In this document: in pieces, positions 6,530-45,663 of the stretch | Position numbering within the stretch: the stretch's first letter is position 1 | Layout: each line of letters begins with the position of its first letter | From: a virus | DNA: 64,000 nucleotides | Direction: 5' to 3' (one strand) | Virus record (IMG/VR): IMGVR_UViG_3300021387_000118 | Span: 77,168-141,167 of that record | Position numbers and translations under genes: made by a program | Notes under the pieces: generated by a model | Database searches by the model: none | The model's input: only the letters and a program-made list of their open reading frames with translations | What the model was told of the DNA's origin: nothing

Positions 6530-6961
6530 TTAGTTTTCGATTTCAGTAATAAGTCGTTGAATAGCGTCTTTATCTTTCTGATCAGATGCTTCCATCATTA
6601 AATTATGAAGTTTATTTACCATATGAGCCTTGCTGTCATCATAACTATATCCACGACTTCTCCTTGAATAATTTCCATTACTCATAGAACGGTTACTTCT
6701 ATAGCTATTCCCACCATCTCCATAGTAAACAGGCATTCTTCTCTAAGAATAGCCACCATTACGACCATAACCGTTTGCATAGGAATATTCATCTTCTTGA
6801 ACATCAATACCTTCTTCGAACATCTCAACTGAACCGATATCCTTAAGAATATCAACAAGTTCGCCAAGAACTTTTACAGTATTCATATCAAGCTTTCCCT
6901 ATCGAGAAATTTCATCAATTTCACAATAGACCATATCCTTAATATTATCAAATTCCATCAT
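6530..6961 (-). CDS. late hypothetical protein (144 codons, in-frame TAG)
   Basis: ATG ATG at 6961 with AAGGAGGTG as SD. Same frame as ORF 6530..6736 through a TAG. Confidence 0.45.
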
Positions 6962-14149: not shown

Positions 14150-14535
14150 GTACCAGCACAATACCAAATGTTCACATGAGGTCGTTAATCTCATGCGGTT
14201 CTCTAATGAACTCCTTATTATTTCTAATAAGAGCAGACTATATCTTTCTCCAAAAATGGAGTTACCCACTTCGATACACTTGTATCTACTTCCTTACGGA
14301 ATAGTCGTTGAGGTTTATCCTATTCGGATCTTACCTGCTGATTACCCATTTATATTAATGTTTAGGATTTAACCATGCATCATCTTATAATTTTTTTCTG
14401 TTTTCACAACATTCACGTTTAGACATGTTTCATTCTTCCGTTGTAGTATTATAAGCTTTAGGGGGTTCCAGCATTTCAAGTAACACGCTGTATATAAATA
14501 CAATATGCACATTACTGTACATACGGACCATTGTG
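14150..14535 (-). ncRNA. group I intron ribozyme core (R1)
   Basis: On the minus strand the R element UCAACGACUAU (plus 14291..14301) precedes the S element AAGAUAUAGUCU (plus 14235..14246), with P7 pairing GACUAU/AUAGUC. Starts at the TAA of the upstream structural ORF. Confidence 0.6.
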
Positions 14536-15126
14536 TTAATCCACGTTAAGATTTCCGCTGAAATCAATTTCCTGAGTCTCTGCATCGAGAGAGATCGTCA
14601 TGGAAGGATCAGCTGCAAATCTCGGAATTACAACATAGCAAGGACGAAGAGAATCCTCACAGGGATCGCCCATTGCACAGAACAGAGTAAGCTTAACAAG
14701 ATCAGAACTTACAGCTGTCGTATTCTGGAGCATAGCACCAGAAGTAACATTTCTTTCCCACTTTACAAGATACTGAGTGGGAGCATTTGTATCACCTTCT
14801 GCCCTGGGAGGAAGAGTGATCTTAGTATTAGAACCAGTACCAGAAATCTTATCCTCAACAACACTAACATCAAGAGCAACATCATTTGCTCCATTGCCGA
14901 ACAAACCGATTACACGAACAGAACCATGGGTGTATTCTGCAATGTTAACTTCCGAACCAGCGGGAGCAACAACAATCTTAGGCATAATGATAGACTGTCC
15001 GCTACCAGCACCAGCATACTGAATAGCATGACCGGACTGAGCATTAATAGCCGCCGGATGAAGCAGTGCGTTCGTAGCGGTAAAGGTACCAGTCTTAGAA
15101 CGATAAGTTGTACGGATAATATTCAA
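14536..15126 (-). CDS. structural protein, probable 5' exon ahead of intron R1
   Basis: 196-aa ORF. The terminal TAA sits at the intron boundary. A stop-rich 230-nt gap separates it from a small upstream ORF. Confidence 0.45.
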   Translation of the reverse strand: MNIIRTTYRSKTGTFTATNALLHPAAINAQSGHAIQYAGAGSGQSIIMPKIVVAPAGSEVNIAEYTHGSVRVIGLFGNGANDVALDVSVVEDKISGTGSNTKITLPPRAEGDTNAPTQYLVKWERNVTSGAMLQNTTAVSSDLVKLTLFCAMGDPCEDSLRPCYVVIPRFAADPSMTISLDAETQEIDFSGNLNVD

Positions 15127-16619: not shown

Positions 16620-17046
16620 ATAAATTACTCCAATTAAACATATCCAGTATTAATGCACCAAGCAAATCATGCCTTGCGATCCCAGTATGTTTTTCAATAT
16701 TATTCTTCTCCTCACATAAAATATAAAACGTGATCTGCAATAATTTCATTTTGGAGTTGTAACGTTCAAGTTCTCTAAATCCTACTTCGTAACAAATAAA
16801 ATTCTAAACATTATGTTGTGTTGGATGAATTTGGTAAGCCGGAAGCAAGTTAATGCCAAGATAGTCGCTCGGATCTGCCTCAACATCCTATAGCTCCTTA
16901 TTATTTAATAGATATATAATTAGTTCGTTTTCTATGAGTTTTTTTTTAATAATTTCCTTGATTCGAATATCATCAGAATCAACAGTATTTTTAAGATTAA
17001 GGAGAGTTTTAAGTTGTTCATCATTCAATTCCATATTATCCCTCCT

Positions 17047-17619
17047 TATAATGGCAATAGTTCAACGTCAAGAGTTGAAGTAATATCACCAGATGTGTTT
17101 TTAATTGTCAGTATTTTACCTATGTATGTATCATCGCCAAGAAATTTAACTTTAACTCTATTTCCTGTATACGTCAAAGTTAACAAGTCAATTGGAATAT
17201 CTTCACCATCTATGAAAAATTCCCAAGTTCCGACTGGATGATCTTCGATTATTTCATTTTCATAATCGTAATAATTAATAGTAAATGTTTTTGCCGACCC
17301 GCCAATTCTAATTTGACTACGACCTGAACACGTAATCTTTGATGTGATAGAAGAGTAGGCATCATTATCTTCAATAACTTGAATAGGATCAATGTTACTA
17401 GAATAGTAGTTTGCCCATTTGCCTATTACATTTCCGTCGTCATCTCTTTCTATATAATCGTTATGTTGATCAAATACGTCCTAAGTTAAAGTAACCCTAC
17501 AAATTCCATTTGGAGAAATACGATTAACTTTTGATATGAGCCACGCACGAGGCTCTGTTTCAACATTTGCATCAATGATCATACGAATATTATAAAATAA
17601 TGTTTCGGTATCTCTAGTC
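17047..17619 (-). CDS. late structural hypothetical protein (191 codons, one TAG)
   Basis: Translated by hand. ATG at 17619, TAA at 17047, one in-frame TAG. Confidence 0.45.
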
Positions 17620-17989
17620 ATTGGCACAGCAAATTTTTGCTAGTCTTCGACCGTCTATATTTTATAATCTAACCAGATTCCAGAATTGTTCTCGATGTTA
17701 CTTTATCAGTTCGTTACTCTGACAAAGGAATAACTATATCATTATAATTTACTTTATACTTTTCATATTTTCTTTTTAAATACATATCTGCGTCCGTGTA
17801 AAGCCAATCTAAAAATTTCTTCACTTGTTTTGTTCCGCTAAAAGACAACACTTTTGTAACACCATTATGACATGAAGCATCATAAATATTTCCACACGGA
17901 ATATTTAATTCATTTCTCAAATATTCCTATAAATCTCTACAAAAAGACTCTGTAGATGTAAATGTAATTAATGGTTGAAATTTTCCGCT

Positions 17990-18655
17990 CTATGTATAAT
18001 GTGGACAAAATGAACCGTCGCCATCAAAATAGCCAAGGACAAAAAATTTTAATAACTTGTCTGGAACACAAGTTGGAAATTCCAAAATCAAACTTTTATT
18101 TTTTACCACTCCATTTTCAGACAACTTGTCACTAATATGTTTGCTAAATATGCTCAACCTATATTGATTAGAATAATTATAACCAAAATCATGTTTATTG
18201 CTATAATCTATATATTCTAACGGTCTTTCATACTTTAATTCTTCTCGCATACGTTCTAATATATATTTATCTTGTTCTTCTAAAGATATAGTAACGGTTT
18301 GCTTTGGCGTATAATTAGACCCATCAGCATAAAGAAATCCCAATATATAAGCCTTGTTTGGTGTATCAATAACGTCAAAATAATTTTCATCTAATGAATA
18401 TTTTCTTTGCCCATTGCCAACTCTCTTAACACCATATTGATCCAGTACTTTAGCAATAACTTTATGCCCAACATTATATTGTTTACCAATATAAACTGTA
18501 GACTTTCCATTTTTATACATATCCACAATATCTTGTTTTTGTTCGTCTGAAAAATCTTTATATGTAAATATTTTACTCATATTATTCCTCCTAAAAATAA
18601 TTTGATATATAAAAACAGTAATCTTTGTATTAGGAGTACAAAGAAAGGAGGCCAA
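17990..18655 (-). CDS. LAGLIDADG homing endonuclease (double motif)
   Basis: Two motifs: LGFLYADGS and LGYFDGDGS. An N-terminal HTH. Immediately downstream of intron core R2. Confidence 0.75.
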   Translation of the reverse strand: MASFLCTPNTKITVFIYQIIFRRNNMSKIFTYKDFSDEQKQDIVDMYKNGKSTVYIGKQYNVGHKVIAKVLDQYGVKRVGNGQRKYSLDENYFDVIDTPNKAYILGFLYADGSNYTPKQTVTISLEEQDKYILERMREELKYERPLEYIDYSNKHDFGYNYSNQYRLSIFSKHISDKLSENGVVKNKSLILEFPTCVPDKLLKFFVLGYFDGDGSFCPHYT

Positions 18656-18661
18656 TCCCTG

Positions 18662-19009
18662 TCCTGTTTTTTACATTTTAATAGTTATTCTTTCTTATAT
18701 TTTCATACAAGAGCAGATCATATCAATACCATATCTTACGACTTAGGTAGTTCCCGTTACCTCACTTGAGGACATGATCGTTGAACTTTACCCTATTCGG
18801 GTCTTAGCTGCGAATTATCCAATCCAATAATTTTTTGACATTCACGCATAGTTATATTTCATACTTACGTTGTAGTATATTGGCTCTAAGGAACTCCTCG
18901 CAATTAGAGAACTTTCGACATTAACTTTCATTAATGAAGCGCACAAATTTTACGAATTCTGGCTTCTTAGTACAGCTGGACACTAATATTTACGTCCGTT
19001 AAAAATCCA
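18662..19009 (-). ncRNA. group I intron ribozyme core (R2)
   Basis: R element CAACGAUCAUG (plus 18772..18786) and S element GAUAUGAUCUGCUC (plus 18715..18724). P7 is GAUCAU/AUGAUC, covarying relative to R1. Shares 5' motifs with R1 and R3. Confidence 0.55.
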
Positions 19010-19502
19010 CTACATAAGATAATCGCATCTTAATATTTCAAATGTAGGAAATTGATTACCATTATAATTTGCCTTATCAACAACAAGCCATTTGTTGTAA
19101 GTACCATCTTCATGCATTATATCCACATAACATCCAATTGGGAAAATTGTGTCATACCGATTTCCCAATACTTCTTCGTAATATTCTAGATTACATTCTT
19201 GTCCAGGCTGCATTTGCAACCAAAATGTTACCTAATCTTTATCATATGTCTGTTTGGCATGACGAATAAATTTGATATTCAACGCTGTTTTCTCCATATC
19301 ATCTTCTGGATGTAAGTTATTCAACTTAAGAGCCTCATAAGATTTTTGGTCGTGATAGTAATCATAAATATAGCATATCTATGATTGGATATCCTGATCC
19401 CAAGTACCGATCATAATTTGATCGCTTTGTTTTTTTCTAGCCCTACCAGGAGTATGAGATGACCCATGGATACTCTGAAAATTTTTAAAAGTGATTGCCA
19501 TA
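19010..19502 (-). CDS. late hypothetical protein, candidate host gene of intron R2 (two TAG)
   Basis: ATG near 19502. ORF 19010..19219 shares the frame. The terminal codon is TAG. Confidence 0.35.
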
Positions 19503-19948
19503 TCAATCACCTTCCTTTATTTTCATAATTTCAGATCCAGCATCTAATATCAGTTTTCTATAATTAGACCAGTTAAAACATTCGCTATTATACTCAATTA
19601 GTGCAGCCTATAATAAACTCATTGTTTCCACAAGTTCTGGCGGCTCAAGTAAAATACTGTTTAGACCGTTAAGCCTATTTTGTAAATCACGGAATGCTTC
19701 CGCGACATTAATATCTGGATAGTTAGATTTTGTATTTCTATCTACATATAGTAATAAGAAAAAAATAGACTTTCTTAAAGAAGCCTTAGTTTGATGGATT
19801 TGTTTAGAAGAATAAGAACCGTAGAGTGTTTTCATGAAGTTTCCACCCCGTTTATAACACTAAGAGAGTACGCACGATCTCTAATAAGTTTTCGAAGATC
19901 AGTTTGGGACTTAGTATATAAATCTTTCATTTCAGCTAAGTGTTGAGC

Positions 19949-20299
19949 CTAGCTAAAAAACTTTTGTTCGCTATTTGACAATAGTTGACTTGTCAAAAGC
20001 GTAGAGTGGTAACGTGGAGATGCCCATTCACTTACCATTCCCAATCCCAAAACTTCCTCTACAAAATCCTTATCAGAATCTTCATCTAAAGCGTCTCTTA
20101 ATTCATATTCAACTTCTTCCATATCATCATCCATCACTACAGATAAAAACAGTCTACGTACCATTGGTTTAGATAACGTAGACCGCAGATATCCATTCAG
20201 CACTTCTTTTACCAATTTTTCACTTAATCCAGACATTTCATAATCTTTAACTCGTAAATAAAACCGAGAATAGATTTCATCGTATTCCGAGGCTGCCAT
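19949..20299 (-). CDS. hypothetical protein
   Basis: 116-aa ORF. Confidence 0.35.
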   Translation of the reverse strand: MAASEYDEIYSRFYLRVKDYEMSGLSEKLVKEVLNGYLRSTLSKPMVRRLFLSVVMDDDMEEVEYELRDALDEDSDKDFVEEVLGLGMVSEWASPRYHSTLLTSQLLSNSEQKFFS

Positions 20300-20911: not shown

Positions 20912-22030
20912 TTACTGAGTGATAACCCAGGTACCAAAATATCTGCCAATAAGCGTAGAAACACCAAGCTTAGTAAGATACTTAACCTCATAGGTCATAT
21001 CCTGGTTAACGGTATTATCAGTAACTTCTTTGATCATAGCATCTCCCTCATAAACGAGTTTGACAAATCTGTTATCAGCAACAGGCATGATCAGAAGGAA
21101 GTCAAGATTATTCTGACCATACTTAACAAGCTTCGTAGTAGTATCATTCTTTGCAAATACTTGCGGAATCTCTACAACACGAGTTCCTTCAAATACGCCA
21201 ACATGACCAAGGTTTCTATGGTCGGTTCTGTCTTCCTTAGCAATCCAATTTACATCAGCCAGATTCTTCAGCTTGGAAAGAGCAGACTTCGTTCCCATAA
21301 TAACAACTTCAGTGCCACGGTTTGCAGCCTGAACATCCTCTACCATAGTTACAAAAGTATCATGAGCAGCAGCATCAAGAGCAGCAGTCTTATAGAACTG
21401 ATTAGAGCCAGGAAGAACCTTCTGACCAGCTTCCATAACGGCCTTGAATACAACCTCATCAACATACTTATCCATTGCTTCATAGATCGCATTTACAAGA
21501 CGAGTCCAGTCAGCACGACCAGTCATAACACGCTCAAATTCCTCGTACACTCCAAGACCAACCCAATATGTCGGAACACGGAAAGTCTCGCCAATTCCAA
21601 GGCGCTGTCTGTCAATATCCCAGTGATCGCCACTGAGCTTACCGACCGTCAGAACTGTTTCGTCTGCCGTCTCAAATTCGTTGGTATCACCAAGAGCAAG
21701 ATTCTTAACTTCTACAAAGTCGCGGAAGAACTCATTATCAGTCCAACCAGAAGTAAGCATATTATCAACTGTATCCTCGATAACCTCGAAGATCTCATTT
21801 TTATGACGATTGATTGCTCTACGAATTTCCTTCTTAGAAGCAGTCTCATCAATACCCATAATCAGGCGGAATTTCTCCTTGATCATAGCGTCAGCATCAG
21901 CCTTGGTAATACCAGACTGGAAAACTCCTCTGTTGTAATCAGCAAGAAGCTGAGAGAAGTTCATATAGGTAGACTCATCATTATCAAATGCGGCCTAAGT
22001 AGTAGCAGCAAAATTCATAAATTTACTCAT
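20912..22030 (-). CDS. major capsid protein (HK97-like), one in-frame TAG
   Basis: 373 codons in frame. ATG at 22030 with AAAGGAGGG as SD. TAG at codon 12. Capsid-like composition. Confidence 0.7.
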
Positions 22031-25268: not shown

Positions 25269-25555
25269 CAGCCCATCTCCGATTCGAACGGAGGTTACCT
25301 CCTTCAGAGGGATATCACGGTTTTCTTACTACATTATGTTTCCATAACAGCATCTGCTTTGTAGTCTGGATCATCTCTTCAACTCAGAGAGTTGGGAACT
25401 ATATGATCTCTGCGCATTTAAATTAGCTCAGGATTGCCATATGAATAAAATCACTTAGGGTTTTCCTGAATTAGGTTCCTTTACATTTATGTTTCACAAC
25501 ATAACGCTCCACAAATAATGAGAGACCGGTGCACTAGCCGCTGTGCTAATGGGCT
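25269..25555 (-). tRNA. intron-split amber suppressor tRNA (anticodon CUA after splicing); exons 25555..25521 and 25324..25269
   Basis: 5' exon reads AGCCCAT-UA-GCAC/AGCGGCUA/GUGC-A-CCGGU-CUCU. 3' exon reads AAA-ACCGU, a 23-nt variable arm, CUCCG-UUCGAAU-CGGAG and AUGGGCU-G. Acceptor is 7/7 complementary, with a canonical D-arm and T-arm. Splicing gives the anticodon loop CUCUAAA. Confidence 0.6.
25325..25520 (-). ncRNA. group I intron (R3, 196 nt) inside the tRNA anticodon loop
   Basis: P1 pairs exon CUCU with IGS GGAG (25510..25507), giving the U.G pair at the splice site. R element CAGAGAUCAUAU (plus 25401..25412). S element AGAUGAUCCAG (plus 25366..25376). Terminal G at 25325. Confidence 0.6.
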
Positions 25556-30865: not shown

Positions 30866-30884
30866 TTATTTCTCCTTTTAATCC

Positions 30885-32081
30885 TTAATCAAATTTAATA
30901 TTATAGATACATTCCAGCCCATAATTCTTAGAAATAACAAAAGGAGATTGTTCTGCCTTACCAATTAATCGTCTCGATAAAGCATATTCGTCTGTTCCAA
31001 CAAAAGAACCAGATTGGATTACTTTTGTGTTTCCACTAGTTGTCATAGCATTAAAATGTCTATGTCCAAGAACAATTATATCTGGAATATATCCTAACAA
31101 CTTCGTCATGTTTTTTGTAGCATTATCCATGTTATCTAAATCACCATGTACAAAAACAATCTTTTGATTATCTACGTTTACAACAACAATCCCAGGATCA
31201 ATCTCATTATCATAGCAATGAATATTAGGGTAGTTTTGAAGTTTGGATCTCACGAACGGAACAACGAAATTTTCGATATTCTCATGTGCCAAACTGTCTT
31301 CTTTTTTCGCATTCATACGACCATGATTTCCTGGAGCAACATAGAATTTAACAGAATTAAACATTGTACTTAAAATCATTAAAAAATCACAAACGTAATC
31401 TGTTACTATCAAAAACTGATCAATTAAATCCTGGTTATTTTGTAATCTCAAATTATTATGTATTTGACCACTACACAGTTCACTACCTAAAACAATAACA
31501 TCTTCAGCACCATGTCTAATCGCAATATCATGAATTCTATCAAGATAAGCATTTAACATCTGTCGAAGGATATCTATATCATAATCATTCCAACGATTAT
31601 GAATCTCAATACCGCAGTGGATATCAGTTAAAGGTACGACAAGAGTAGTAGCACCACGAATTATTTCTTTATGACTAGCCGGATCATATTCTAATGGTCG
31701 ATTACTAGCAGCCTCTTCAATTGAACGTACAAACAATTCAAGATAAGATTCTTTCCTAGCTTCCTCACGAATTAGCTTATTGTATTGATTTCTTTCATCC
31801 CGTAGTTTCACCTTTTCTTTTTCGAGTTCTCTACGGAGTTCAATTAAATCATCCTCAGTATTATCAATCATTTCATTCTGAACGGCCTTAATACTTGCGT
31901 ATTTTTTCCTGTAAGCAGACTCTCCCCATTCCTCACCGTCACTACGACAATTCTTATTAAATACATTTGCTAATTCGTGCCATGTTTTATCTATAATCCC
32001 ATCTTCTTTCATAGTTCCAAGACGCTTTACATAATTCAATTCTGTTTCTCCAGGCTTACGACTAAGATCAATATAAGACAT
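30885..32081 (-). CDS. metallophosphoesterase, SbcD/Mre11-like nuclease
   Basis: Motifs DIHCG, GNHG and GHRH of the calcineurin-like phosphoesterases. Confidence 0.55.
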   Translation of the reverse strand: MSYIDLSRKPGETELNYVKRLGTMKEDGIIDKTWHELANVFNKNCRSDGEEWGESAYRKKYASIKAVQNEMIDNTEDDLIELRRELEKEKVKLRDERNQYNKLIREEARKESYLELFVRSIEEAASNRPLEYDPASHKEIIRGATTLVVPLTDIHCGIEIHNRWNDYDIDILRQMLNAYLDRIHDIAIRHGAEDVIVLGSELCSGQIHNNLRLQNNQDLIDQFLIVTDYVCDFLMILSTMFNSVKFYVAPGNHGRMNAKKEDSLAHENIENFVVPFVRSKLQNYPNIHCYDNEIDPGIVVVNVDNQKIVFVHGDLDNMDNATKNMTKLLGYIPDIIVLGHRHFNAMTTSGNTKVIQSGSFVGTDEYALSRRLIGKAEQSPFVISKNYGLECIYNIKFD

Positions 32082-32086
32082 CTATA

Positions 32087-32305
32087 TCAATCCTCCTCAA
32101 ATTCATCGGTAAGATCTTCATCTGTTTTAAGTGCAAGACTGAGTTCAATAGGCTGACCAGCAAACTTTTCAAAGCACTTTGATACGGGGATCTCCATTTC
32201 TTCCTTATCTCCATTAACATAAGTGATTATCTTACCATCATTAGAAAGTTCACCCTTAATACTAAACTTCTTTGTTGTTACCTTATTATACTTATAATTC
32301 TGCAT
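32087..32305 (-). CDS. hypothetical protein
   Basis: 72-aa ORF. Confidence 0.35.
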   Translation of the reverse strand: MQNYKYNKVTTKKFSIKGELSNDGKIITYVNGDKEEMEIPVSKCFEKFAGQPIELSLALKTDEDLTDEFEED

Positions 32306-32334
32306 TTTTATTTTCTCCTTTTAATCCTTAATTA

Positions 32335-32652
32335 TTATTTACTTGACATTTTTAAAGTGACTCCAGAATTTTGCTTTGACCGTTGAAAAGTATTATTTTT
32401 TTCAAATAACGTAATAGCCATAGCTTCTTCTCTGGAAAATCCTGCGTCTTCCAATGATTTGACTTTTTTCGCATATAATTTGGAATCAACCTCAAACCAC
32501 TCATCGTTATCAACTAAATCTTTATAAACGCTCAAAAGTTCTCTGCCAATTGTATAAATTAATCCCTTATATTTCTTAAAAACATCCGATATTATCAGAT
32601 TTAAACTAGTTGGATCTTCCGATAAAAGATCCAATAACGTATTTAAATTCAT
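32335..32652 (-). CDS. hypothetical protein
   Basis: 105-aa ORF. Confidence 0.35.
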   Translation of the reverse strand: MNLNTLLDLLSEDPTSLNLIISDVFKKYKGLIYTIGRELLSVYKDLVDNDEWFEVDSKLYAKKVKSLEDAGFSREEAMAITLFEKNNTFQRSKQNSGVTLKMSSK

Positions 32653-32691
32653 ATCCTTTTAATCCTTTCATATATAAAGAAAGGATGAGAA

Positions 32692-33303
32692 TTAGAGTAT
32701 CTCATCCATATCACAATCTTCACCAATTATCTTATGAACAATTCCAAAACTTTTTGCTTTGTCTGGATACATCCACATCTCTTGTTCATAAACACTATCG
32801 TAAAACTCTGATGTCATAGTAGTTTTAGAAAGTATAAACGCTTTAGCTCGTTCTTCTTGAGAATCAAAAAACTCAACGTTATTCTTTGCTTTACTACGAG
32901 AGTTTTCGATTAATATATCCCCTTCGTGCTGCAAAAAGGCGCTATCTTTGTACGAGTACCTAACGTGACATGCAAGATAGCAAAGATATGCGGCACTAGC
33001 TACAAGGTCAAGAGCAATTCCCCAGATTGGAGTTTTACTGGCTTCAATTACGTCAATCATATTGTTTGCATTAAATACATTTCCGCCAGGAGAGCTAATA
33101 AACAGCTTAATAGGCTGTCTGCTTTCAATGGGCAAGTTTTTATCTTCCTTATTCCATTTAAGAATATACATAATATAATCTTCAATTACATTCTCACTGA
33201 TTTCATCATTCATGAACAATGTTCTATCCTGAAGAAACTCTCTATATAATTCATCAAAAGCACTATCATTATTATTTCCAGCAATAGCAAGTAAATCAGC
33301 CAT
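32692..33303 (-). CDS. ClpP-like serine peptidase
   Basis: ISSPGGNV and DLVASAAY resemble ClpP (S14) motifs. Confidence 0.4.
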   Translation of the reverse strand: MADLLAIAGNNNDSAFDELYREFLQDRTLFMNDEISENVIEDYIMYILKWNKEDKNLPIESRQPIKLFISSPGGNVFNANNMIDVIEASKTPIWGIALDLVASAAYLCYLACHVRYSYKDSAFLQHEGDILIENSRSKAKNNVEFFDSQEERAKAFILSKTTMTSEFYDSVYEQEMWMYPDKAKSFGIVHKIIGEDCDMDEIL

Positions 33304-33309
33304 ATGTAA

Positions 33310-33627
33310 TCACTCCTTTACCGTTGTTAATTCCGCAATCTTCTTGTTTAATTCATCAATCTGTTTTTTAAGATCAGCTGTTTCAGATTGTTCACGAGAT
33401 TTCTTATTTTCATCAATTAATTCCGCGAATACTTTTTGAAATTCATCTGTATCCTTAAACACAAACACACTTCGTTTTCCATCTGGATCTGACCTGTCCG
33501 CCTTAACATCAATAATTTCCTGACCCTTATGCAAAAGCTGTCGTGCAATTTGTGCCTTTCTAATAACTTTACCCTTAATCTCAGGTTCCATATTTTCAAA
33601 CGAATTTTTTGTTGTAATAATATTCAT
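33310..33627 (-). CDS. coiled-coil hypothetical protein
   Basis: 105-aa ORF. Confidence 0.35.
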   Translation of the reverse strand: MNIITTKNSFENMEPEIKGKVIRKAQIARQLLHKGQEIIDVKADRSDPDGKRSVFVFKDTDEFQKVFAELIDENKKSREQSETADLKKQIDELNKKIAELTTVKE

Positions 33628-33642
33628 ATTGTTATTCTCCTT

Positions 33643-34476
33643 TTAATCCTTATTTTGAAACATGTTCGCATAAAGCTGACTTGTTTCACTTCGTACATCA
33701 GCATCTAACGCAATACATGCAAATAGTTTGTTACCTTTTAATTCATTACACATTTTAACTAACGGATTATTAGACGAAACATCTAATAATGATTGTTTAA
33801 TATCTCCATTCCAAAAAATTCTTCCCTCTTCACCAATTCGAGTTCCGATTAATCTAATTTGTTTCTCTGTCAGATCTTCAGCCTCGTCGATGCAAATTAT
33901 GCAGGAAGGATAGGTGGTCCCTTTCATATATGTTGGAATATTAAATTCAATAACACCTTGGTCTTGCAACCTATCTACTTCATATTCTTGACCCTCAAAT
34001 TGCTGTTTTATAGGTAATGACCAAACAGAATGTTTTTCTTCAAATGTACCTTTCAGATATCCCTCGGATCTACCTTCTCCCCACGGCTCGCGAACAAAGC
34101 AGATTTTGGACTGCCACCCTTTTTCTCTTACGCAGTAATCAGCCATCCTAGTAACTAAATAACTTTTTCCTCCACCAGGCACTCCAAGAATTGCACATAC
34201 AGTAATATCTTTATTATTCAACATATCTAATGCGCATCTCTGTAATGCGTTTTTACCTTTGATAATTTTCGATGGTGGAAGTTTTAAACTAACAAACTTT
34301 TCACCGTCAAACCGCATTTCCTTTTCTGAATTATCATCCGTGTTTTTGATAATTAAATATTCATTACAATACCAATCATCAAGACTCATATCATTCATAT
34401 AGTCATTTATCTCATTAGTATTTCCAGAAATTGACTTATAACCTTTATATATAGACAAATCCTCACTTCCCCTCAA
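33643..34476 (-). CDS. P-loop NTPase (PhoH-like)
   Basis: Walker A motif GVPGGGKSY. Confidence 0.5.
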   Translation of the reverse strand: MRGSEDLSIYKGYKSISGNTNEINDYMNDMSLDDWYCNEYLIIKNTDDNSEKEMRFDGEKFVSLKLPPSKIIKGKNALQRCALDMLNNKDITVCAILGVPGGGKSYLVTRMADYCVREKGWQSKICFVREPWGEGRSEGYLKGTFEEKHSVWSLPIKQQFEGQEYEVDRLQDQGVIEFNIPTYMKGTTYPSCIICIDEAEDLTEKQIRLIGTRIGEEGRIFWNGDIKQSLLDVSSNNPLVKMCNELKGNKLFACIALDADVRSETSQLYANMFQNKD

Positions 34477-34672
34477 CAGTATATGTATGGTCTTTCCTAT
34501 ATTGATTCAATAATTTTACTGCTTTAGGACTAGTTGTTAAAAAATAAGTCTTCGCATTTTTTCCATGACTCCTAGAACTCATATGAACATCATGCCCAAG
34601 TCCGGCCTCACGGATCATAAAAGCCTCTGCTTTTGTAATATCTATCATATATATTGATTCCTTTTCTTTCAT
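34463..34672 (-). CDS. small hypothetical protein
   Basis: 69-aa ORF. Confidence 0.3.
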   Translation of the reverse strand: MKEKESIYMIDITKAEAFMIREAGLGHDVHMSSRSHGKNAKTYFLTTSPKAVKLLNQYRKDHTYTVEGK

Positions 34673-34687
34673 TTTATTTACGCAACA

Positions 34688-34713
34688 AAAATAGGAGAGT
34701 GGTATACTCTCCT
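34688..34713 (-). terminator. hairpin terminator after tRNA-Pro
   Basis: 8-bp stem AGGAGAGU/ACUCUCCU followed by a U-run on the minus strand. Confidence 0.4.
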
Positions 34714-34740
34714 TAAAACTTTACGCATAATGTTTTTTAG

Positions 34741-34812
34741 TTGGGATGACTGGAGTCGGACCAGCCTGATCTAGTTCCCAAAACTAGGGCCTAACCGCTA
34801 GGCTACATCCCA
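34741..34812 (-). tRNA. tRNA-Pro (anticodon UGG)
   Basis: Hand-folded cloverleaf. Acceptor UGGGAUG/CAUCCCA, D-stem GCCU/AGGC, anticodon stem CUAGU/ACUAG, loop UUUGGGA, T-stem GCUGG/CCAGU. Confidence 0.6.
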
Positions 34813-35077
34813 AAAAATGTCGGGTGAGTGCACGTAAACTCACGCTTCTACTTCTGGATTTCACAAACTTTATTATGGAGTTATTCCTCCGGTGTTCCAT
34901 ATAATAGCTATATTTTCTTCTCGGCTTTTTAACTCTAAGAGTCGCTACCTTGCCTACCGACATAAATAACTAGACACTATGTTAATTCAATCTTTCTTTG
35001 AAACAGTTCTACGCATTAACCTATATTTGTTCATATAATATAATTTTTTGCTGTTAGTGTCTAAATAATATTTCCAA

Positions 35078-35350
35078 TTAAAGAACTGCTTCCTTAAATT
35101 TCTTTCCAAACTTTGCCTTTGGAACATTTTTTGAAGCAACCATCATCGTCTCACCTGTGCGAGGATTACGACATTCTCTAGCATTCTGTTCCCTTACTTC
35201 GATACTAAGACCATTAAAAAGCTGCACCTTGCCAGTATCCTTAAGCGAGTCTACGACAGTATCTTCCAAAATCATATAAAGTTCCTTCGCATCTTTCTTT
35301 GTAATATGAGCATTATTCGCAAACGCATCAATAAGTTCTTTTCTATTCAT
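35078..35350 (-). CDS. HU/IHF-family DNA-binding protein
   Basis: 90 aa with an RNPRTGE arm motif. Confidence 0.7.
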   Translation of the reverse strand: MNRKELIDAFANNAHITKKDAKELYMILEDTVVDSLKDTGKVQLFNGLSIEVREQNARECRNPRTGETMMVASKNVPKAKFGKKFKEAVL

Positions 35351-35600
35351 ATATATTTTTCTCCTTTTAATCCTTAATGTTTAATTTTATAACATAAGCG
35401 CTTATTAGGTGTTTATTCCCTACCACACCCAAAGACTGTTCAATTGTTATATTAAATCATGATTCCGTATTTATTAACACCGCACTCGGCAATAGCGGTG
35501 GAGAGGATATATGATAATACATCAAAATCTCCCTCATATAACGGATTTTAGCACAAGTGTAAAATTTGGTAATATATAAAGAAAATTTGCGCTTCATATT

Positions 35601-36539: not shown

Positions 36540-36820
36540 AGTAACAAAATTAAAATCTGAATCAACATTTTCTTATATCCTGGCTCTTTATCCAGGAACT
36601 CTTCTTTTTCGAAGAGGATGAGACTATATCATGACCCTCGTTTAACGTTAGGCGAATGCTATCCTATATATAGCAGTCTTGGGATTTCGTGTCTGGATTA
36701 TTGTTTGTCTACTCACCAGTTAGTCGTTTGACCTTCTTGCTACCTCAGTGACTTTCACAAGCTTGGTTCCGAGTTTATTCATTCTCGGAATTAACCCAAT
36801 ATTTTTTGAACTGAGTTTCC
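36540..36820 (-). ncRNA. group I intron ribozyme core (R4)
   Basis: R element GUCAAACGACUAACUGG (plus 36717..36734) and S element GAUAUAGUCUC (plus 36622..36632). Begins at the UGA of the upstream 596-aa ORF. CUGAG-GAAA-CUCAG hairpin at the 5' end. Confidence 0.5.
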
Positions 36821-38611
36821 TCAGAACCGACCCTGATTATTTGAGTCCATACCATTCATACGTGCCTGAACATCTGTATGAATGCAATTTACAGCCATAA
36901 TATTGTTACTAAATTCAAAATATTTCTCCATTAGAGGATGTTTAACATTTTTAAAATATCCTAGATTATTACTACTATTGTGAGGATTACGTATACCACA
37001 CAAATATTCTCCATCACAAAATCTAGGAGTATATACTTGAATAACTCCATCATCCTGCAAAAGAGTTGGATCTTCTTCCCATGATTTCCCAACAGTATAT
37101 AATAATAAAGCATATGGATTTCCGCACACCGTCAAGTTATCACCGTGAACCGTAATTTTACCTTTACGAAGTTTTGCCACATAATCATTAATAATTTTTG
37201 ATTTATCTACTTTCCACATTTTGCTATTTTCGAAATCATTATTCCAGGCATATAAATCTGCAAGCATTTCATAGTGATTAACAGCAGTAGCATTTTTTCG
37301 TAAAAATTTTTCAAATTCATGATTGTTAGATTTTAATAAATTTACATAGTCAATACTTGTCTGAGCAATCTTATGTATATCATCAGATGTACAAGGTAGC
37401 GTGTTAATCATTTGATATGACATCTGTTGAACATCATTTAATTTTGACGGATGATCCGTTTTGACAATGCCCCATGTGCAATTATCTGCTCTGACATGAT
37501 TGCACCAATAGTCATAAGCAAGCGGCAGAGTACCACCTATAAGATCAACAAACTTTTTAAATTTGGTTGCATTATCAGTAGTAATCATTTTTATGTTCTT
37601 TGCCAAATGCCTATTGCCGTACATATCAGTAATTTCATAAGTATCATAATCTATATTATTATCTTGACAATAATCTTTGATAAACTGTTGAATACGAGTT
37701 CTAAACGCACAGGCTTTAAAAAAGTGATTTCTTAACAACGCCATACCATTGCACCAATCTGGCATAACAGTTGTTTCAATTAATGCCATTCCGTCCCATA
37801 AGGTATTCTTTACATTTGTTTCTTCTCTATGAACAGTACACCTTTTTCTTATTTCTTTTTCGCCATTTTTTAATGTTACCTCATAATCTTCGGCCCTTAC
37901 TATGTCAGCTATAGTATTGAAAAAACTATCTTTATCTTCCAGGATCAAAACATCTTCAACAGGAATGTTAATCGTTCCCTCTATCGCAGAAGTTGATAAT
38001 GGGGCATAGGCGGAAATTTCCACGATCTTTGCCCCATGATCTGGGAGAAGCTTTCCAATCCCCATAGTTAACCAGTTATATGCTTTATCATATAATTCAT
38101 CTCTAATAAACATGACACTACCTTGTTTCGCCTTAGATGGATTACGATAAAGCATCTTATAATAGATTGTTTCTTCCGTTACTTCGCCAGTTTTATTATC
38201 AACTTTATTATATGTAATATGGGTCCCTTGTTCATAAAAAATCCGGCGTATATCATCCTTTGATAGTTTCTTATATAAGTTCTTTTTAGATTTTACTTTT
38301 TCTTCCAAAGTATCAATTAATGCAAGCTGCTCCTGATTATCTTCAGCCTCTTTCCTCATTGAAGCAATATGACTTAGTTCTTCTTTGTAACTTCTCAAAC
38401 CAAATTGAAAGTCTATGCAGATAATATCTCTAGTAGACTCATCTTTTTTATCTGTTTGCATGCCATTATTTTTTAGCCAATGAGTAAATAAAGAATGGTG
38501 CAACATAGCTTCAGTATAGTCATACCTATCTCTGATGCCAGTATTTTTGCCGTAAACAGTAGCAGCTTTATAGTTTCTTATTTTCCATCCATATTGTCCT
38601 ATAGAGATCAT
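36821..38611 (-). CDS. large replication-associated protein (possible TOPRIM/primase-like), candidate 5' exon
   Basis: 596 aa with an IEG...LEDKD pattern. The UGA stop sits at the intron R4 boundary. Confidence 0.35.
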   Translation of the reverse strand: MISIGQYGWKIRNYKAATVYGKNTGIRDRYDYTEAMLHHSLFTHWLKNNGMQTDKKDESTRDIICIDFQFGLRSYKEELSHIASMRKEAEDNQEQLALIDTLEEKVKSKKNLYKKLSKDDIRRIFYEQGTHITYNKVDNKTGEVTEETIYYKMLYRNPSKAKQGSVMFIRDELYDKAYNWLTMGIGKLLPDHGAKIVEISAYAPLSTSAIEGTINIPVEDVLILEDKDSFFNTIADIVRAEDYEVTLKNGEKEIRKRCTVHREETNVKNTLWDGMALIETTVMPDWCNGMALLRNHFFKACAFRTRIQQFIKDYCQDNNIDYDTYEITDMYGNRHLAKNIKMITTDNATKFKKFVDLIGGTLPLAYDYWCNHVRADNCTWGIVKTDHPSKLNDVQQMSYQMINTLPCTSDDIHKIAQTSIDYVNLLKSNNHEFEKFLRKNATAVNHYEMLADLYAWNNDFENSKMWKVDKSKIINDYVAKLRKGKITVHGDNLTVCGNPYALLLYTVGKSWEEDPTLLQDDGVIQVYTPRFCDGEYLCGIRNPHNSSNNLGYFKNVKHPLMEKYFEFSNNIMAVNCIHTDVQARMNGMDSNNQGRF

Positions 38612-41592: not shown

Positions 41593-41757
41593 GTAAACCT
41601 CCTTACTGAATACAGTATTTAATAAATGATATTTAGTTATTTAGAATAATAATTGATCTGACGAATCTTGTCAAGCACAATTTATTTGTTAAGAAAATCT
41701 TAATAATTAGGTGAAGTGCAAAATCTGTTAATATGGCGAAGAAATATTCCCTTGAGG

Positions 41758-41862
41758 GATTGTGAGTGCACCGCACTTTAGCGCACTGAAGTGACTGTGA
41801 GTGCACCTTTTTTGCCATTTAGGGGACTGTGAGTGCACCTCACGAAACTACAAGTTTCGTAA
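41758..41862. repeat. iteron array (3x GAYTGTGAGTGCACC) plus hairpin
   Basis: Copies at 41758..41772, 41793..41807 and 41825..41839, spaced 32-35 bp. Half-site AGTGCA at about 41714. Hairpin ACGAAACU/AGUUUCGU at 41840..41862. Confidence 0.55.
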
Positions 41863-44793: not shown

Positions 44794-45663
44794 ATGAAGA
44801 AAGAGTTTAAGAGTACAGAGATCACCTGCAGATTTAATAACCTGCTTAACCCGGAACAGATCGAAAAGGCTACAAATCTTGTAGCATTCAAGATCAGGAC
44901 ATCCGAACTTGAGACACTGACAGGGGATAAAGATTACAGGAGTTATCTTGAATTGCTTTCAAGTAGCTATCCCGGTGTTGAAAGTTACACGGATGCACAG
45001 ATCAAAGCCGTCACAACTACAGATTTTGACCTGTTCAAGGCACACGAAAAGCTGATTTCTGATCTCAAAGAACAGCTTGAAAAGATCCCGGTTAGCCTTG
45101 AAGACTTCAATAGTCTGACTGGTACAGACAAGAGTATCATACTTCTTGAGTGCCATAAGAACTATAAAGGCATCGGGATAGAAGTCGATGGAGACTGGAA
45201 CAAAGCAATCACAGCGTTTTTTAACTCCGGCAGTCTTTCAAAAGTCAAAGACTTGTTCAGGTCTGCTTTCAATGTCGCAGTCGGGAAGCCCGGGGAACTG
45301 TTCGCCGGGTACAAAATCCGCAAATCGGATTTTTCCGATGCTGACATAAGAAAAGCTGTCTCTCTCGCTTGTGGTGGGGCAGGTCGAACAAAGAAGAAGG
45401 TTACAGACCCGAAGACCAAGGAAAAAATCGAGAAGTTGGGCAACTATGATTGGCGGATCAAGACGGACGCCAAGACGGTTTCCCGGATCGCTTCCGAGCT
45501 TTTCGCTGTTGTGATCGAGTCAAGAGCGGACAGCCTGGAACAGATCAGACCCGAAGCAAAGCAGGAAGCCCCGAAGGAAGTCAAGCAGGACACCAAGCCC
45601 GAAACCCCGAAGCAGGAGCAGAAGAAGCAGGAAGCACCCAAGAAGGACAAAACCACGAAGTAA
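44794..45663 (+). CDS. early hypothetical protein with KE-rich C-terminal tail
   Basis: AAAGGA SD ahead of the internal ATG. The annotated upstream extension lies over the GC-rich element and lacks an RBS. Confidence 0.5.
   Translation: MKKEFKSTEITCRFNNLLNPEQIEKATNLVAFKIRTSELETLTGDKDYRSYLELLSSSYPGVESYTDAQIKAVTTTDFDLFKAHEKLISDLKEQLEKIPVSLEDFNSLTGTDKSIILLECHKNYKGIGIEVDGDWNKAITAFFNSGSLSKVKDLFRSAFNVAVGKPGELFAGYKIRKSDFSDADIRKAVSLACGGAGRTKKKVTDPKTKEKIEKLGNYDWRIKTDAKTVSRIASELFAVVIESRADSLEQIRPEAKQEAPKEVKQDTKPETPKQEQKKQEAPKKDKTTK

Follow-up and report, generated by a model that had tools for sequence, protein, structure and literature searches.

The R2 locus and its host gene

The stretch of DNA analysed here (hereafter the window) comprises 64,000 nucleotides, positions 77,168 to 141,167 of the IMG/VR virus record IMGVR_UViG_3300021387_000118, and belongs to a phage in which the genes of roughly the first 42 kb are encoded by the minus strand. 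One of its late genes is interrupted on that strand by an element, R2, which is very probably a mobile intron of group I (phage IA type), from the structural family of the self-splicing intron 2 of the nrdE gene of Staphylococcus phage Twort. R2 extends over 17690..18951 of the minus strand (1262 nt, AAAAUUUGUGCGC...UAACAUCGAGA), with G at 17691 and A at 17690, its last nucleotide. It separates exon 1 (18952..19501, minus strand, ATG at 19501-19499), which contains four in-frame TAG codons and ends in ...CCAGAAUUCG-U, from exon 2 (17046..17689, minus strand), which begins with AC-AAU-UCU-GGA and comprises 214 codons up to the stop codon at 17048-17046. U 18952, the last base of exon 1, is the first base of a Tyr codon that is completed by exon 2 and followed by NSGIW. 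R2 is a member of a known intron family; its oddities are a rare terminal A and the recoded TAG codons of the endonuclease gene that it carries.

The junction was set by intron-less alleles, by orthologous introns at the same site and by covariation of the paired region P10. Two intron-less homologues from viral contigs (L022 and L023) are unbroken across the site (...CDYVMQWIFNGYKYQCPAVLRSQNSYNSGIWLDYKIQSVED..., protein ...RSQNSYNSGIW...) and exon 1 is colinear with both of them up to ...RSQNS-Y. Exon 1 of the window ends in ...CCAGAAUUCGU (U 18952) and exon 2 starts with ACAAUUCUGG (17689). The exon junction predicted from these comparisons is 18952|17689 (...AAUUCGU|ACAAUUC...), with the codon UAC (Tyr). 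Removing R2 restores the reading frame and yields a spliced product of 397 residues, of which residues 39-265, spanning the junction, match phrog_5251. The initial annotation had placed the intron at 17990-19009 and had proposed a reverse transcription PCR across 19010/18660. These limits have to be abandoned: the stretch 19009-18952 (coding WIFNGRKYQCPAVLRSQNS) is exon, since the colinear homologues L022 and L023 read through it, and 17990 belongs to an in-frame TAG codon read as Gln. The junction proposed for the PCR was wrong as well, the predicted one being 18952|17689.

Other candidates for the splice sites were discarded. A first P1 found by hand (UGGAU/GUCCA, splice site 19005) was rejected because the intron-less homologues make this stretch exon. 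A junction AAUU|...CAUCG|AG (Asn-Gln(TAG)-Asn) was rejected since L021, a locus with an orthologous intron, has no G at that place, and a junction CAGAAU|...GAG|AAC since it is one residue short and leaves no P1. A rival hairpin (AAUU/GAUU) around the 5' splice site is not kept in L184, L196 and L208.

By pattern scanning, many viral and metagenome contigs were found to carry this intron at the identical codon. A 14-kb megablast query and a tblastn search with the host protein gave no match in GenBank phages and in phages, respectively, and a scan of genome_contigs for the 3' module also gave none; no cultured host or prophage was found. A scan of viral contigs with the 14-mer GTTCAACGATCATG returned mostly chance matches.

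The LAGLIDADG homing-endonuclease gene of R2 (17714..18580, minus strand) starts at ATG 18580 behind the ribosome-binding site AGGAGG and stops at TAA 17716-17714. Its product of 288 residues contains the motifs LGFLYADGS and LGYFDGDGS in a single chain, in agreement with the double-motif LAGLIDADG gene that the initial annotation had recognised 3' of a group I core. Two in-frame TAG (Gln) codons (17992-17990 and 17929-17927) correspond to Lys and Gln in the L021 orthologue. Read through these codons, the 288-residue protein matches Pfam LAGLIDADG_3 with 29.1 bits (cut-off 22.5; best stretch residues 180-257); cut at the first TAG, it reaches 20.6 bits, below the cut-off. Furthermore, phrog_4645 ('endonuclease') matches residues 13-277 (8e-57). 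A PDB sequence search with the endonuclease found no solved structure and was uninformative. Both the window intron and the L021 intron carry an intact 288-residue gene. The intron-less target CCAGAATTCGTAYAATTCTGG (CCAGAATT-CGTAT-AATTCTGG) is nearly palindromic with the intron at its centre, and the L022 intron-less allele reads CCAGAATTCGTATAATTCTGG at the site; such a target would suit a LAGLIDADG enzyme. Between P9 and the ribosome-binding site of the endonuclease gene, a stem-loop (ACAGGACAGGGAUUGGCCUCCUUUCUUUGUAC..GUACAAAG..UACUGU, 18600-18662, minus strand) that is kept in L021, L185 and L196 may control endonuclease expression; Rfam gave only a chance-level match to CyaR on this stem-loop.

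The recoded TAG codons of R2 and of its host gene are part of a broader pattern. Many minus-strand open reading frames (ORFs) of the window are interrupted only by TAG, and these codons align mostly with Gln in homologues. Taking TAG as sense raises the cover of the minus strand by ORFs from 0.62 to 0.76. All 72 in-frame TAG codons counted in minus-strand ORFs of at least 150 residues (window positions 1-42000) lie in ORFs below about 32 kb, which are structural or late genes, and there is none at 33-42 kb, among early genes that include a polymerase-like one. TAG is used here as a sense codon, read as Gln, which corresponds to the 'code 15' pattern known from other gut phages, in which late genes are recoded. 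GenBank phages contain no close relative of the window; its major capsid protein (20915-21964) shares 27-31% identity with its counterparts in large Firmicutes phages, e.g. Bacillus phage Kirov, PBC2 and SPbeta-like phages.

In line with TAG as a sense codon, the window also contains a gene for an amber suppressor tRNA(CUA) (25270-25555, minus strand), split in the anticodon loop (CU-CU|A-AA) by a compact 196-nt group I intron (25520->25325). ARAGORN finds this tRNA only after in silico removal of the intron (94 nt, long variable arm, G73). The intron, whose P7 is GAUCAU/AUGAUC and which ends in G, scores 43.3 bits with the group I model RF00028 (E 7e-10), below the gathering score. The class-II shape of the tRNA is at odds with the alignment of TAG to Gln, and a scan of viral contigs for its T-arm and acceptor gave no match. 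Decoding of TAG may depend on ribozyme splicing of this tRNA(CUA). Ribozyme splicing, code switch and intron mobility may hence be linked in time, since the endonuclease needs TAG decoding and the tRNA(CUA) gene is itself split by an intron.

Fold and covariation of R2

The fold was drawn by hand from P1 to P10, with P3/P7 as a pseudoknot, on an alignment of seven introns from the same site after removal of their ORF regions. In this alignment, with only seven related sequences and a structure taken from the window sequence, 95.0% of the cells are paired; sliding the partners by 1-3 columns lowers this to 35-42%. Sixteen pairs show changes of both partners, spread over P2, P3, P4, P5a, P6, P7, P8, P9 and P10, and none of 500 shuffles reaches the observed values.

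The guide sequence UUGU-GCG (18940..18946, minus strand, as are all elements of the fold) can contribute to two helices. Its GCG would pair with CGU of exon 1 to form P1, with a U.G pair at the splice site, and its UUGU pairs with ACAA of exon 2 to form P10. The putative P1 CGU/GCG with its U.G pair and U at position -1 is present in all seven sequences, as an invariant helix of 3+1 bp. For P10, columns 23/336 of the alignment hold AU in three sequences, GC in three and GU in one. Moreover, among 24 distinct same-site introns, the four guide bases covary in register with the first four bases of exon 2 (ACAA/UUGU, AUAA/UUAU, ACAC/GUGU, AUUC/GAAU and AUAC/GUAU), from which the register of the 3' splice site follows.

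Downstream of the guide, the P2 hairpin CAUUAA-UGAAAG-UUAAUG (18919..18936) is 100% paired, with three of its six pairs changed on both sides. The stretch 18809..18912 comprises the 5' strand of P3 (18912-18907), P4 (18902-18898 with 18813-18809) and a P5/P5a/P5b extension (18892-18818), with covariation in P3, P4 and P5a. The P6 hairpin ACCC-GAAUA-GGGU (18790..18802) is also 100% paired and two of its pairs are changed on both sides. The 5' strand of P7, C-GAUCAU (18774..18780), lies in the R element and pairs with 18721-18714; its 3' strand, AUGAUC-U-G (18714..18721), lies in the S element and has U 18715 bulged. Between the two strands (18727..18771) are the hairpin P7.1 (CCUC-AAGU-GAGG, 18771-18760), the 3' strand of P3 (GGGAAC, 18755-18750) and P8 (18749-18727). 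P3 and P8 are 100% paired with covariation, and P7.1 is CCUC/GAGG in the window clade and GGUC/GACC in the sister clade. The P9 hairpin UCUUGUAU-GAAA-AUAUAAGA (18693..18712) pairs in the window clade; its overall value of 66% paired includes the sister clade, which is poorly aligned there. Finally, a 3'-terminal hairpin of 9 bp, CUUUGUCAG-AGUAACGAA-CUGAUAAAG (17701..17727), overlaps the last codons and the stop of the endonuclease gene. It is 98% paired in the seven sequences, mostly invariant, and is retained in the ORF-less derivatives L183 and L184.

The initial annotation had argued from P7. Both elements that it quoted, R (CAACGAUCAUG, 18783->18773) and S (GAUAUGAUCUGCUC, 18724->18711), are present on the minus strand and pair as GAUCAU/AUGAUC, as had been described. 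In the alignment, the C-G, G-C and A-U pairs and the bulged U are invariant in the seven sequences, and the next two pairs vary (GC in four and UA in three; UA in four and CG in three), switching together between G-C/U-A and U-A/C-G. The G-C pair (columns 193/259, GC in all seven) is presumably the guanosine-binding site, by analogy with G264-C311 of Tetrahymena. In a wider set of 71 distinct cores, for which R and S were taken from all retrieved loci by their flanks only, complementarity not being required, both variable pairs are intact in 62 cores; with shuffled partners, this number is 22.6 on average and 34 at most. The combinations are CU/AG (27 cores), UC/GA (16), CC/GG (8), GU/AC (6), GC/GC (4) and AC/GU (1). 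The argument that covariation of P7 reflects a real RNA structure is therefore sound, and the 95% pairing of the same-site fold agrees with it. GAUCAU/AUGAUC is itself a frequent P7 variant, ranking second (16/71 cores), so that it reflects neutral covariation and is nothing special to R2.

Several details of the comparison among the introns of the window had to be corrected. R1 does use GACUAU/AUAGUC (14301-14311 and 14231-14245, minus strand), as had been stated for both R1 and R4, but R4 has GACUAA/AUAGUC, i.e. 5 bp and an A-A mismatch. The two 5' motifs said to be shared by R1, R2 and R3, which had been written in plus-strand (antisense) letters next to R and S elements in minus-strand letters, are not common to all three: CGTTGTAGTAT is exact only in R1 (14439) and R2 (18868), and TTTCACAACAT only in R1 (14402) and R3 (25492). 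At up to two mismatches, TTTCACAACAT has 42 matches versus 43.6 expected, which is no commoner than chance, and the R motif has 28 versus 20 expected, so that matches to short motifs could by themselves be due to chance. A 41-nt stretch with 83% identity, in RNA sense part of the P5 extension, is common to R1 and R2. It is the family alignments, not the short motifs, that carry weight for the R2 core.

At this site, the same P1-P2 module and the same 3' module are found combined with a variety of catalytic cores, a sign that introns have recombined with one another. L183 (Ga0247608_10080620), L184, L178 and L060 hold derivatives devoid of an ORF. In the IMG/VR loci L024/L025, L190 and L194, the host gene is interrupted by another group I intron only 8 codons downstream (WLD|YK); some relatives have both introns in tandem, with a 32-nt exon between them in L190.

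The adenosine at the 3' splice site

The last nucleotide is A in 5 of the 25 distinct same-site introns and G in the other 20. The terminal G of group I introns is nearly universal, and R2, with A at 17690, does not have this terminal guanosine (omega-G). The A was kept as the last nucleotide because only that junction restores the conserved Tyr, matches the intron-less allele and fits P10. The A-ending 3' ends are ..CAUCGAGA|AC in the window, ..UUUAGA|AC in L021, ..UUAAGA|AC in L173/L179/L183, ..UUCUCA|AC in L184 and ..UUCUGA|AU in L196; the 3' end of L182 is ..UUAAAG|AC. In L196 (IMGVR_UViG_3300028833_000086), the 3' tail ACAUGUUCUGA| nearly repeats the intron's own P7 3' strand AUAUGUUCUGC and could compete for the P7 5' strand.

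The A-ending introns span three core types (P7 GAUCAU, GACCAG and GAACAA), each of which has G-ending relatives (L060, L185/L232 and others). Therefore, the change from G to A arose at least three times. The presumed G-binding pair of P7 is unchanged in the A-ending introns. A link between the terminal A and the P7 GAUCAU/AUGAUC was considered and rejected, since L060 has that P7 and ends in G, and since L184 and L185 have an identical P7 and end in A and G, respectively.

The A-ending introns have also spread. Those of the window and of L021 are 87% identical, versus 50% for their exon-2 proteins, whose synonymous divergence is saturated, so the intron moved between diverged phages. Between these two introns, 20 paired columns differ, with 7 compensatory double changes, 6 G.U-compatible single changes and no broken pair. 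Exon 2 is open in the frame of the A junction in all carriers (214-240 codons), and compared with other carriers of the A-ending intron its ratio of nonsynonymous to synonymous substitution rates (dN/dS) is 0.11-0.25. As judged from these sequences, the kept fold, the intact endonuclease gene and the spread favour functional A-ending introns, and we take it that exon ligation would still work in this lineage. The full reading, i.e. at least three replacements of G by A at one site with the G-binding pair of P7 untouched, in introns that would splice accurately, keep their fold under selection and home between diverged phages, seems to us evenly poised between right and wrong.

Several points weigh against the identification of R2 or against its splicing with a terminal A. 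Rfam RF00028 gave no group I match to R2, either over the whole window at the gathering score or over 17000-20000 with E up to 10. In a control, this model also missed the known Twort nrdE intron and left the SP-15 capsid-gene intron below threshold; because it misses the Twort nrdE intron, its silence on R2 says little. P1 has only three base pairs with the exon and never varies, so that it receives no support from covariation. Moreover, the conservation of the exons is largely older than the arrival of the intron, so it speaks less strongly for splicing than dN/dS suggests. In Tetrahymena, changing the terminal G to A reportedly blocks ligation unless the G-C binding pair is also changed (Been and Perrotta 1991; Price and Cech 1988), and this pair is unchanged here.

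This last point, together with the near universality of the terminal G, is what would make R2 a real but crippled intron, in which the A blocks ligation, the host gene is broken or decaying and the element is heading for loss. The terminal A is indeed in the minority (5/25), and L184 has neither an endonuclease gene nor any G within 12 nt of the junction. However, the A is common to diverged members of the clade (window, L021 and L173/L183) whose exon-2 proteins are 50-73% identical, which indicates that the A-ending intron spread and persisted. The paired-site changes between the window and L021 all preserve pairing, the endonuclease ORFs are intact, exon 2 has remained open in every carrier and the mitochondrial intron ND5-717 splices with a terminal A. 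We consequently regard decay as unlikely.

If the terminal G were instead G 17691, with the 5' cut after UUCG (18953), the spliced protein would contain Ser-Asn-Asn-Ser in place of Ser-Tyr-Asn-Ser. The frame would be kept, and both the window clade and L196 have a G before the A (AGA|A and UGA|A). Yet such a cut would fall after the G of a G-C pair and not after the U of the U.G wobble, it would put P10 out of register, and it would remove a Tyr that all homologues retain, even those with only 34% identity. In addition, G-ending sister introns must cut after UCGU. Any junction using G 17691 would either shift the frame, cut the 5' site behind a G-C pair or sacrifice the Tyr, and none fits L184 (UCUCA|AC), for which this solution is impossible; it is very improbable. 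The limits of the initial annotation (19009-17990, with an endonuclease of 196 residues ending at TAG 17990) follow from the standard code, which stops both ORFs at TAG. Against them, 19009-18952 is conserved coding sequence in intron-less homologues, ORF and homology run through the TAG codons and exon 2 begins only at 17689, so that we give them practically no credence. R2 is invisible to standard tools: since Rfam is silent and the standard code cuts both ORFs short, the late gene is mistaken for two fragments and its endonuclease for a protein of half the length.

For an intron that splices with its terminal A, we propose the following scheme. The late pre-mRNA would fold into P1-P9 with the P3/P7 pseudoknot. 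The attack after U 18952, which forms the U.G wobble with the guide, would come from a free guanosine that binds to the conserved P7 G-C pair. P10 (UUGU/ACAA) and the conserved 3' hairpin would present the 3' site, and the exons would be joined at 18952|17689 within the codon UAC. The 288-residue endonuclease, encoded in the P9 region with its own ribosome-binding site, would be completed only late in infection, after the onset of TAG decoding as Gln, because its gene has two in-frame TAG codons. It presumably cuts the intron-less site in related co-infecting phages, and repair would copy the intron in (homing). Whereas the interruption of the gene, the covarying fold, the endonuclease family, TAG as a sense codon and the horizontal spread are shown by the sequences, the scheme is a prediction as regards catalysis, the site of cleavage and the time at which the endonuclease is expressed.

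If these introns do splice accurately with an A, the second splicing step in this ribozyme family needs no recognition of the terminal nucleotide as G, and the site may be positioned by P10 together with the 3' hairpin. The A could also be an adaptive setting, e.g. for slower ligation, or could prevent 3'-site hydrolysis and circularisation as proposed for ND5-717. These introns form a natural, replicated series of G- and A-ending members at the same site with the same G-binding pair, with which the dependence of the second step on the terminal G can be tested.

Neighbouring introns and known systems

A regular-expression screen of the window for group I introns returned only R1-R4; a further candidate near 6900 proved to be ordinary coding sequence. 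Besides R2, the window is thus predicted to hold three more group I introns, R3 being that of the tRNA(CUA) gene. R1 is a 375-nt intron devoid of ORF (14164-14538, minus strand) in a gene starting at 15126, and it ends in G. Its 5' site would be GUGGAU|UAAC at 14539|14538 and its guide CAAUG-GUCC would pair with UAUUG of exon 2, the junction being set from P1/P10 only. Because of the intron, the host gene seems terminated at 14536; predicted splicing adds ...NLNVD-YCAGTSSLYYIYYPDEDLVVSGTSIA. R4 (278 nt, 36566-36843, minus strand, guide AAUCAG-GGUC) also ends in G and splits an early protein of 910 residues in NGMD|FDSDF. This protein matches phrog_8308 and, weakly (38% over 76 residues, E 1e-5), 'RNA-dependent RNA polymerase' proteins of Thomasclavelia phages. 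Possibly it represents a YonO/QDE-1-like RNA polymerase cut at its metal-binding motif; a PDB sequence search with it was uninformative.

On the plus strand, TTCTCCTTTTAATCCTTAAT (read as ATTAAGGATTAAAAGGAGAA on the coding strand) occurs four times at 30868-35395, 1.3-1.7 kb apart, each time just upstream of the start of a minus-strand gene; these copies look like a shared ribosome-binding and regulatory block of early genes. Three copies of CTGTGAGTGCACC lie about 35 nt apart at 41749-41840, and short tandem repeats of the AAGCAGGAAGC type at 45559-45650. The coding strand switches near 42-44 kb, and the GC content jumps from 0.28 (42-44 kb) to 0.43-0.48 (44-52 kb).

The known system closest to R2 is the Twort nrdE intron 2 and, more broadly, the subgroup-IA introns of phages (T4 td, SPO1 and Twort). 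Twort nrdE intron 2 shares the core blocks GAAUUGCUGGAA..CUUAGAGCC..ACUACAACGUAA..GCGUGAAUGU..AAUCAGCA..AAGUUCAACGA..GAUAUAGUCUG, and P4-P6 of R2 is 73-80% identical to introns of Twort nrdE (about 80%), Bacillus phage SP-15 and other phages. Both R2 and the Twort intron have extra hairpins between P7 and P3', reside in a phage protein-coding gene, carry a homing-endonuclease gene and are missed by RF00028. The nrdE coding sequence of Twort is annotated as spliced from three pieces, and its intron 2 carries the HNH endonuclease I-TwoI (AF485080; Landthaler et al. 2002, as cited in PMC3984707). In contrast, the endonuclease of R2 is a LAGLIDADG protein encoded in the P9 region and not an HNH protein encoded in the P6 loop. 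P7 is GAUCAU/AUGAUC in R2 and GACUAU/AUAGUC in Twort, and the host gene is a late gene whose product matches phrog_5251 and not a ribonucleotide reductase gene. Furthermore, the recoded TAG codons of its endonuclease ORF and its terminal A set R2 apart. Self-splicing has been demonstrated for Twort, whereas that of R2 is predicted from its sequence.

For the terminal A, the only natural data came previously from a peculiar organellar intron, and we found no phage or bacterial intron ending in A in the open-access full-text literature. In an engineered system, an adenosine-specific Tetrahymena ribozyme (Been and Perrotta 1991) reportedly ligates with a 3' A only when a G-C to A-U change is made in the binding pair of P7. 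The R2 family differs from it, as this pair is G-C in all seven aligned sequences. The organellar intron, ND5-717 of hexacoral mitochondria, ends in A and its exons are still ligated in vivo; its authors suggested that the A prevents hydrolysis at the 3' site and circularisation (PMC6545197, PMC8146996). ND5-717 is obligatory, vertically inherited and non-mobile, holds host genes in P8 and is partly back-spliced, whereas the phage introns are mobile, bear endonuclease genes, stand among G-ending sisters and gained their A at least three times.

With regard to recoding, Borges et al. (10.1101/2021.08.26.457843) described an intron endonuclease gene with recoded stop codons and proposed that its expression is delayed to late infection. 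That case concerns TGA read as Trp in an early gene of 'Agate' phages, whereas R2 combines TAG read as Gln with a late gene, in a phage distantly related to SPbeta- and Kirov-like phages.

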